This document shows, in pieces, positions 36,420 to 36,735 of a stretch of DNA of 64,000 bases. Within the stretch, counting starts at the first letter, position 1. Each line of letters opens with the position of its first letter. The DNA comes from Escherichia coli (lineage in GTDB: Bacteria > Pseudomonadota > Gammaproteobacteria > Enterobacterales > Enterobacteriaceae): assembly GCF_003334385.1 (NCBI RefSeq), contig NZ_QOWN01000004.1; one strand, 5' to 3'. The notes below the pieces were generated by a model. The model did no database searches, was not told the origin of the DNA, and saw nothing but the letters and a program-made list of their open reading frames with translations. A program made the translations under genes and the position numbers.

Positions 36420-36735
36420 CATCAGGTATACACCGCAGCGCCTGATGCGACGCTGTTGTGTCTTATCAGGCCTACGAGTTCAGTGCTGTGTGTAGGTCGG
36501 ATAAGGCGCTCACGCCGCATCCGACAATAACAGCATTGCCTGATGCGACGCTGCCGCGTCTTATCAGGCCTACGAGTTCGGTGCTGTGTAGGTCGGATAA
36601 GGCGTTCATGCCGCATCCGACAATAACAGCATTGCCTGATGCGACGCTTGCGCGTCTTATCAGGCCTACGAGTTCAGTGCTGTGTAGGTCGGATAAGGCG
36701 TTCACGCCGCATCCGGCAATAACAGCCTTGCCTGA
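36420..36735. repeat. BIME array: three tandem ~97-bp units of paired REP palindromes
   Basis: gcctgatgcgacgc...tcttatcaggcctacgagttc.gtgctgtgtaggtcggataaggcg.tca.gccgcatccg repeated from ~36440, ~36538 and ~36634. Confidence 0.85.

Follow-up and report, generated by a model that had tools for sequence, protein, structure and literature searches.

What is the tandem repeat that fills most of the spacer between pepA and holC in Escherichia coli, how did it come to have three units, and what might it do there? We asked these questions of a 64,000-nucleotide stretch of contig NZ_QOWN01000004.1 from assembly GCF_003334385.1 (hereafter the window), in which a reading of the sequence without database searches had described a tandem array of bacterial interspersed mosaic elements (BIMEs), with two repetitive extragenic palindromes (REPs) per unit and possible binding of gyrase and integration host factor (IHF). 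The placement of a BIME array between holC and pepA was right, and its class can be specified: the array is a BIME-2, in which Y and Z2 REPs alternate across short linkers, and it lies entirely inside the 353-bp pepA-holC spacer. The explanation that we favor, at a probability of roughly 0.85, is that it arose by three in-register local duplications of a 96-bp Z2/linker/Y/linker module and that it has the proposed activities toward gyrase and at the RNA level that are discussed below.

The architecture of the array is highly regular. Tandem Repeats Finder delimits a single array at 36440-36735, with a period of 96, 3.1 copies and 93% matches. Its three units—36440-36537 (98 bp, including an extra TG), 36538-36633 (96 bp) and 36634-36729 (96 bp)—agree with the three units of about 97 bp in the sequence-only reading, although "near-identical," the term used there, is slightly generous for pairwise identities of 91-94%. 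Each unit consists of a 36-nt Z2 REP, a tail-to-tail linker of 14-16 nt, an opposed 34-nt Y REP and a 12-nt head-to-head linker, so the two palindromes per unit that had been proposed are one Z2 and one Y. The three Z2 REPs (pattern GCCTGATGCGACGC...GCGTCTTATCAGGCCTAC; 36440-36475, 36538-36573 and 36634-36669) carry their GTAG tag on the minus strand and are inverted REPs on the plus strand, while the three Y REPs (pattern GTAGGTCGGATAAGGCG...GCCGCATCCGRC; 36492-36525, 36588-36621 and 36684-36717) carry it on the plus strand, and this orientation alternates strictly throughout. The tail-to-tail linkers occupy 36476-36491 (16 nt, GAGTTCAGTGCTGTGT, with the extra TG relative to units 2 and 3), 36574-36587 and 36670-36683 (14 nt each), and the 12-nt head-to-head linkers lie at 36526-36537 (AATAACAGCATT) and 36622-36633. 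At the left edge, a 9-nt inverted partial REP head (CGCATCAGG, 36418-36426) stands outside the tandem register and is separated from the first Z2 by a 13-nt linker; the start at 36420 given by the sequence-only reading takes in this fragment and thus precedes the array proper, which Tandem Repeats Finder begins at 36440. The right edge, 36718-36740, comprises a further head-to-head linker and the 11-nt start of a fourth Z2 (GCCTGACGCAA), the 11 nt being 36730-36740 and touching the pepA stop codon. Chance would give 0.04 copies of the REP tail motif GTAGGYCKGATAAG in the window, where 13 are present; 6 of these 13 copies are within the array, which is the sole multi-unit REP array of the window.

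All six REPs are tagged and can form hairpins. Each carries the GTAG/CTAC tag and folds, at -14 to -20.5 kcal/mol (z-scores, -3.5 to -5.9), into a hairpin that has the internal mismatch typical of REPs. Among the Z2 copies, the first folds at -14.3 kcal/mol and has a degenerate apex (GTTGTG), and the second and third each fold at -20.5 kcal/mol; the Y copies of units 1, 2 and 3 fold at -19.2, -17.4 and -15.3 kcal/mol, respectively. The base of the Y stem is a T-A pair in this array versus C-G in the other Y REPs of the window—a compensatory, locus-specific change—and it has decayed to a T/G mismatch in unit 3. As a whole, the minus-strand RNA of the spacer folds at -164 kcal/mol (z = -9.65).

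These features place the array within a well-described class. BIME-2s consist of Y + Z2 repeated in tandem across short linkers, the number of copies differing from strain to strain (Ton-Hoang et al. 2012, PMC3333891), and everything expected of them at the sequence level is found here: Y/Z2 content, alternating orientation, short linkers, variable tandem copies, an extragenic location, and tagged, mismatched palindromes. The array resembles other members of the family—REP325 of yjdM-yjdN, araD-araA and sucC-sucB—in its alternating Y/Z2 REPs, short linkers and tandem amplification, and also in its location between co-directional genes, strain-variable unit number and reported gyrase cleavage. 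It differs from REP325 in its linkers (AATAACAGCATT and GAGTTCAGTGCTGT here, GTCGGCACCGTT and GGAGGGTGCGGGAATTT there), in the T-A variant of the Y stem base, and in being inverted relative to the flanking genes. In a comparison of whole units, 76% of positions are identical to those of REP325, a six-unit K-12 array with 100-bp units; the REPs are conserved, whereas the linkers are unrelated. The window holds two further one-unit BIME-2s, single Y/Z2 pairs with linkers of their own (3345-3429 and 9586-9669), and, at 12892, a Y REP that stands alone behind a partial Z2.

The linkers are also what points to how the array was built. Because they are the same within the array, unlike those of the other Y/Z2 pairs of the window and of REP325, the units most plausibly arose by local duplication. 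The T-A stem pair common to its Y copies counts in the same direction, and the alleles of one to four units described below are in-register mosaics of each other. REPs are probably nonautonomous elements handled by a REP-associated tyrosine transposase (TnpA-REP/RAYT), and the array would have grown or shrunk by unequal recombination, by replication slippage between the 96-bp units or by RAYT-mediated strand exchange. TnpA-REP requires the GTAG tag and the stem mismatch, and it recombines BIMEs in vitro (Ton-Hoang et al. 2012, PMC3333891). The in-register gains and losses could come from RAYT activity or from ordinary slippage and unequal exchange, and the data fit both equally. The likeness to REPIN/RAYT systems lies in the inverted REP doublets with a 5' GTAG tag and stem mismatch and in CT dinucleotides at the inverted REP positions; the difference is that amplification here is local and tandem, not dispersed.

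A survey of alleles shows how unit number varies. The expectation that unit number differs among strains was borne out by comparison across E. coli genomes, which revealed alleles of one, two, three and four units and a BoxC spacer in 26%. Unit frequencies were obtained from two systematic samples (39 and 59 rows, one of them shared, hence 97 distinct genomes) of a ranking of 5,426 complete E. coli genomes, and they reflect the database, not natural populations. Three units, with a locus span of 951-953 bp, are the commonest state (18/39 and 27/59, about 46%); two units (about 844-858 bp) account for about 21% (8/39 and 13/59), and a single unit, the state of K-12, for about 7% (757-759 bp; 3/39 and 4/59). 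The array is absent in the remaining sampled genomes (10/39 and 15/59, about 26%), which have the BoxC allele and a locus span of 731 bp. Among the 97 complete genomes sampled, none had four or more units; four units, in a 455-bp spacer, turned up in E. coli SCPM-O-B-8794 when GTDB species representatives were scanned. Across the whole set, a BIME-type spacer is present in 4,009 of the 5,426 complete genomes, and in 12 neither allele was matched at a coverage of at least 80%. The composition of the alleles is informative. The usual two-unit allele is unit 1 + unit 3, and the 159-bp K-12 spacer fuses the unit-1 Z2 to the unit-3 Y. In the three-unit allele of strain 5-1 (98.6% identity, the same value as for a sampled O25b:H4-ST131 genome), the Z2 of unit 1 has been duplicated into unit 2. 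More divergent two- and one-unit versions occur in UTI89, VE-V10-F and AF34. In E. coli 2012C-4227, an 11-nt deletion in the two-unit spacer (389-634) has cost the last Y REP its GTAG tag and cut off the end of the tail-to-tail linker, an instance of a single REP decaying. Over the 951 bp that surround the array, the window is 100% identical to E. coli O145 strain RM9872.

The array-less allele deserves separate mention, since a different structured repeat takes the place of the BIME. In 1,405 of the 5,426 complete genomes (26%; this count is exact, unlike the sampled unit frequencies), the spacer is 132 bp long and contains CCCTCTCCCTTAGGGAGAGGGTTAGGGTGAGGGT, flanked by an inverted CCTCACCCTAA; according to the tabulation in Holder et al. 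2015 (PMC4666352), CCCTCTCCCTTAGGGAGAGGGTTAGGGTGAGGGT is a type-A BoxC/PIT/TMECO intrastrand-triplex motif. The two alleles are exchanged exactly, with one junction directly after the holC leader (...GGATTTAAATA) and the other at the ACGCAA that immediately precedes the pepA stop codon. In E. coli O111:H8 7-58 72A, the BoxC allele (589-720) corresponds to 36418-36734 of the window. The K-12 list of BoxC copies has none at 4.484 Mb (Holder et al. 2015, PMC4666352), which fits K-12 having a BIME there. BoxC/PIT/TMECO elements resemble the array in occupying the same spacer position and in being structured, dispersed intergenic repeats tied to local instability; they differ in their unrelated sequence and single copy, and are not REPs. 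Elsewhere, two inverted BoxC/TMECO-type motifs lie upstream of ugpB in E. coli N3 (about 1400-1560), one of which is 94% identical over 51 nt to the holC-pepA BoxC copy.

Which of the two states is older can be read from other species. The same scan of species representatives found three units at this site in E. albertii, two in E. whittamii and one in Escherichia sp. MOD1-EC7003, which implies that the BIME-2 predates E. coli and that the array-less allele is derived. The linkers vary slightly between Escherichia lineages, for example GAGTTCGATACTCTGT. Farther out, the pepA-holC synteny was found in 109 Enterobacterales species representatives with a delimitable spacer, the length of which ranges from 64 to 455 bp (median, 122). 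At least one GC-rich palindrome is present in 97 of these 109 spacers, and the palindromes are often genus-specific and REP-like, as in Salmonella, Citrobacter, Klebsiella, Enterobacter and Pseudescherichia. The one part of the spacer that does not turn over is the holC leader, 30 nt at 36388-36417 on the minus strand (ATATGGGGCTTCTTGTGGTGGATTTAAATA on the plus strand; conserved leader sequence ATATGGGGCTTCTTGTGGTGGATTTAAAT). These 30 nt before the holC ATG are nearly invariant in Escherichia and the five genera just named, and they form the fixed left boundary of every allele; they may be a conserved translation-initiation or regulatory leader.

As for what the array might do, the best evidence concerns DNA gyrase. 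Gyrase cleavage sites are over-represented in BIME-2s, where they are found mostly in Y REPs, and BIME-2 cleavage persists or rises under rifampicin (Sutormin et al. 2019, PMC6379681). In the Topo-Seq table DS3 of that study, the 83-bp K-12 BIME-2 listed as "<holC-<pepA" has in vivo two sites with ciprofloxacin, one with rifampicin + ciprofloxacin, two with oxolinic acid and none with microcin B17 (PMC6379681), against about 0.085 ciprofloxacin sites expected in 83 bp from the DS3 totals. Gyrase binding at this locus, which the sequence-only reading had put forward as a possibility, is thus supported by published experiments on the one-unit K-12 allele. At the DNA level, the Y REPs would act as transcription-independent sites of gyrase binding and cleavage.

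A second set of proposed activities would operate in RNA. On the minus strand, the order of transcription is pepA, the 353-bp spacer, holC and then valS. The spacer contains neither a detectable intrinsic terminator nor a promoter-like site; hence, the array is not a canonical pepA terminator, and pepA transcripts are expected to enter it, where they would fold six stable hairpins. The first complete hairpin that such a transcript would meet is the Y REP of unit 3, which begins 24 nt past the stop codon. By analogy with other REP/BIME loci, the six hairpins would block 3'-to-5' exonucleases and thereby stabilize pepA mRNA, and they would act as partial attenuators of transcription that continues into holC-valS. 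The exonuclease-barrier and attenuation roles of REPs and BIMEs reportedly have their support in Higgins 1982, Khemici and Carpousis 2004 and Espeli 2001.

Several other interpretations of the array have to be set against this one, beginning with those that assign it to a different kind of element. Some BIMEs in general do bind IHF, and here as in the IHF-binding REP pairs known as BIME-1 (RIP/RIB), a Y REP has a second, inverted REP as its partner. A BIME-1, however, is a single copy of Y + Z1 whose long L linker in many cases includes the IHF site (Ton-Hoang et al. 2012, PMC3333891). In this array, every non-Y REP is a Z2, there are three tandem units instead of a single copy, the linkers measure only 12 and 14-16 nt with no L linker among them, and none of the six matches to the IHF consensus WATCAANNNNTTR in the window falls within the spacer (36388-36740). 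The only Z1 REP noted lies elsewhere, at about 22867-22896. We dropped the BIME-1/RIP reading on the lack of an IHF consensus site in the spacer and regard it as extremely improbable; the IHF binding suggested from the sequence, being a property of the BIME-1 L linker, does not carry over to this array. That distant Z1-type REP (GTAGGCCTGATAAGCGTAGCGCATCAGGC) is paired with a Y REP across a 25-nt linker (22809-22896) in what looks like a BIME-1, with no exact IHF consensus match. A more specific proposal is that the array yields RNAs of the naRNA4 type, which in REP325 bridge cruciform DNA together with HU. The Rfam 15 model RF02564 (naRNA4, CssrE) was built on the REP325 RNAs that, together with HU, take part in condensing the nucleoid (Qian et al. 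2015), and it matches two 76-nt segments here, each consisting of Y, 12-nt linker and Z2, at 36495-36570 (77.9 bits) and 36591-36666 (82.2 bits), above its gathering score of 59.5 bits; REP325 moreover has the same Y/Z2 layout, in six 100-bp units, likewise between co-directional genes. Yet both matches are on the plus strand and so antisense to the two genes, pepA and holC. In REP325, the model matches the yjdM/yjdN strand, which is transcribed from the upstream gene, at 95-111 bits and scores 53-56 bits on the opposite strand; here the sense strand stays below the gathering score, at 55.7 and 51.9 bits, like the opposite strand of REP325. It is this strand pattern that shows the array to be inverted relative to transcription in comparison with REP325. 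From 35800 to 37000, no promoter-like site was found on the plus strand, the linkers bear no relation to those of REP325, and RF02564 also exceeds its threshold at the two ordinary Y/Z2 pairs of the window (67.3 bits at 3345-3429 and 86.2 bits at 9586-9669), which indicates that the model recognizes BIME-2 units generally. A naRNA4-type product, judged from these sequence matches, thus seems unlikely. The possibility that the repeat encodes a protein has little more in its favor than the presence of open reading frames (ORFs). The sequence-only reading was correct in treating these as spurious, and in error in placing a 99-aa ORF on each strand: only the plus strand has one (36458-36757), and the minus-strand ORFs are of 77 aa (36472-36705) and 64 aa (36422-36616). 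None of the RefSeq genomes inspected has a coding sequence annotated in the spacer, none of the three ORFs matches NCBIfam, and the sole Pfam match is low-complexity and nonsignificant (E = 0.019); we rejected the ORFs as genes for this lack of NCBIfam and significant Pfam matches. The frame is not conserved, either, the longest stop-free stretch being 103 codons here and 57 in K-12, with the 99-aa ORF absent from the BoxC allele, and the 32-aa periodicity mirrors the 96-bp period of the DNA. The ORFs are artefacts of this 96-bp (32-codon) period, and the probability that any of them encodes a real repeat protein is negligible.

The most serious alternative accepts the array as a BIME-2 and denies it a selected function at this site: it would be selfish or neutral repeat DNA in a spacer that tolerates insertions, and unit number would simply drift. 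The presence/absence polymorphism, with BoxC spacers in about a quarter of genomes, the coexistence of alleles of one to four units, the loss of one Y REP's GTAG tag through an 11-nt deletion in one allele, and the wide range of spacer lengths among Enterobacterales all speak for it. Against it stand the presence of a BIME-2 at this site since before E. coli, E. albertii and E. whittamii split, the retention of GC-rich palindromes in the spacers of most species, the compensatory T-A pair by which hairpins are preserved in the Y stems, and the cleavage of the K-12 allele by gyrase in vivo. We consider a purely selfish or neutral array a substantial possibility, albeit the lesser one, and as regards unit number it is compatible with the explanation by local duplication and gyrase and RNA activities; exact unit number is probably near neutral. 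Other observations weigh against that preferred explanation. Since 26% of the genomes lack the array and K-12 has only one unit, any function must be dispensable or replaced by other structured DNA. All sampled O157:H7 genomes have three units and all sampled K-12 derivatives have one, such that unit number looks stable within clones, as in a slow polymorphism and not a switching locus. That three Y REPs would give proportionally more gyrase sites is extrapolated from the one-unit K-12 allele, and the exonuclease-barrier and attenuation roles are carried over from other loci. REP-induced ribosome stalling, which according to Liang and Deutscher reportedly has a range of about 15 nt, is discounted on distance alone, given the 24 nt between the stop codon and the first hairpin. 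At the opposite extreme from neutrality, unit number could be a slow tuning knob for gyrase and for hairpins ahead of holC-valS, or the plus strand could give rise to naRNA4-like RNAs acting with HU, with BoxC as a functional substitute; we find this set of ideas very doubtful. Were the tuning idea true, more Y REPs would bring more gyrase and more RNA hairpins, altering local supercoiling and pepA read-through upstream of holC and valS, of which valS at least is essential. Plus-strand RNAs, if made, would be naRNA4-like RNAs antisense to the 3' end of pepA, and BoxC, if a substitute, would be another non-B-DNA element at the same position.

The genes and other features around the array can be summarized briefly. 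All three genes are on the minus strand: pepA, encoding leucyl aminopeptidase (36741-38252, with its stop codon at 36741-36743), lies upstream of the spacer in the direction of transcription; holC, encoding the chi subunit of DNA polymerase III (35944-36387), lies downstream, its ATG 52 nt beyond the last REP; and valS (33089-35944) follows holC. A promoter scan detected no holC promoter in the spacer. The single sigma-70-like match between 35800 and 37000 is at 36042-36071 on the minus strand, inside holC and directed at valS (TTGCCA, an 18-nt spacer, TAGACT and an extended -10 TG). Within pepA, and antisense to it, the Rfam model RF02850 (Yersinia small RNA 276, "antisense") matches at 37500-37694 on the plus strand (175 bits), along which it lies about 760 nt downstream of the array; this match probably reflects conservation of the pepA coding sequence, and it marks the place of reported plus-strand (antisense) transcription in Yersinia. 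Farther away, the window contains a match to the Rfam Magnesium-II riboswitch at 19843-19958 on the plus strand (121.9 bits), which is probably the mgtA leader, and a tRNA gene at 43667-43748, also on the plus strand.

What, then, does this locus add? The holC-pepA BIME-2 was already catalogued in K-12, and its class, copy-number variability and interaction with gyrase are published; beyond the DS3 table entry, full-text literature searches yielded no paper on this spacer. Our additions are small and unsurprising: the frequencies of the alleles, the forms with four units or with BoxC, and the inversion of strand with respect to REP325. Annotation calls for two cautions, namely that gene callers can make ORFs of 64-99 aa out of BIME-2 arrays and that the Rfam naRNA4 model labels ordinary BIME-2 units whatever the direction of transcription. 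Beyond annotation the significance is limited, and the locus is chiefly a clear illustration of polymorphism in BIME-2 copy number. It might be used as a straightforward marker for typing E. coli, and its natural allelic series could be used to test how the number of REPs relates to gyrase recruitment, pepA mRNA stability and read-through into holC-valS.

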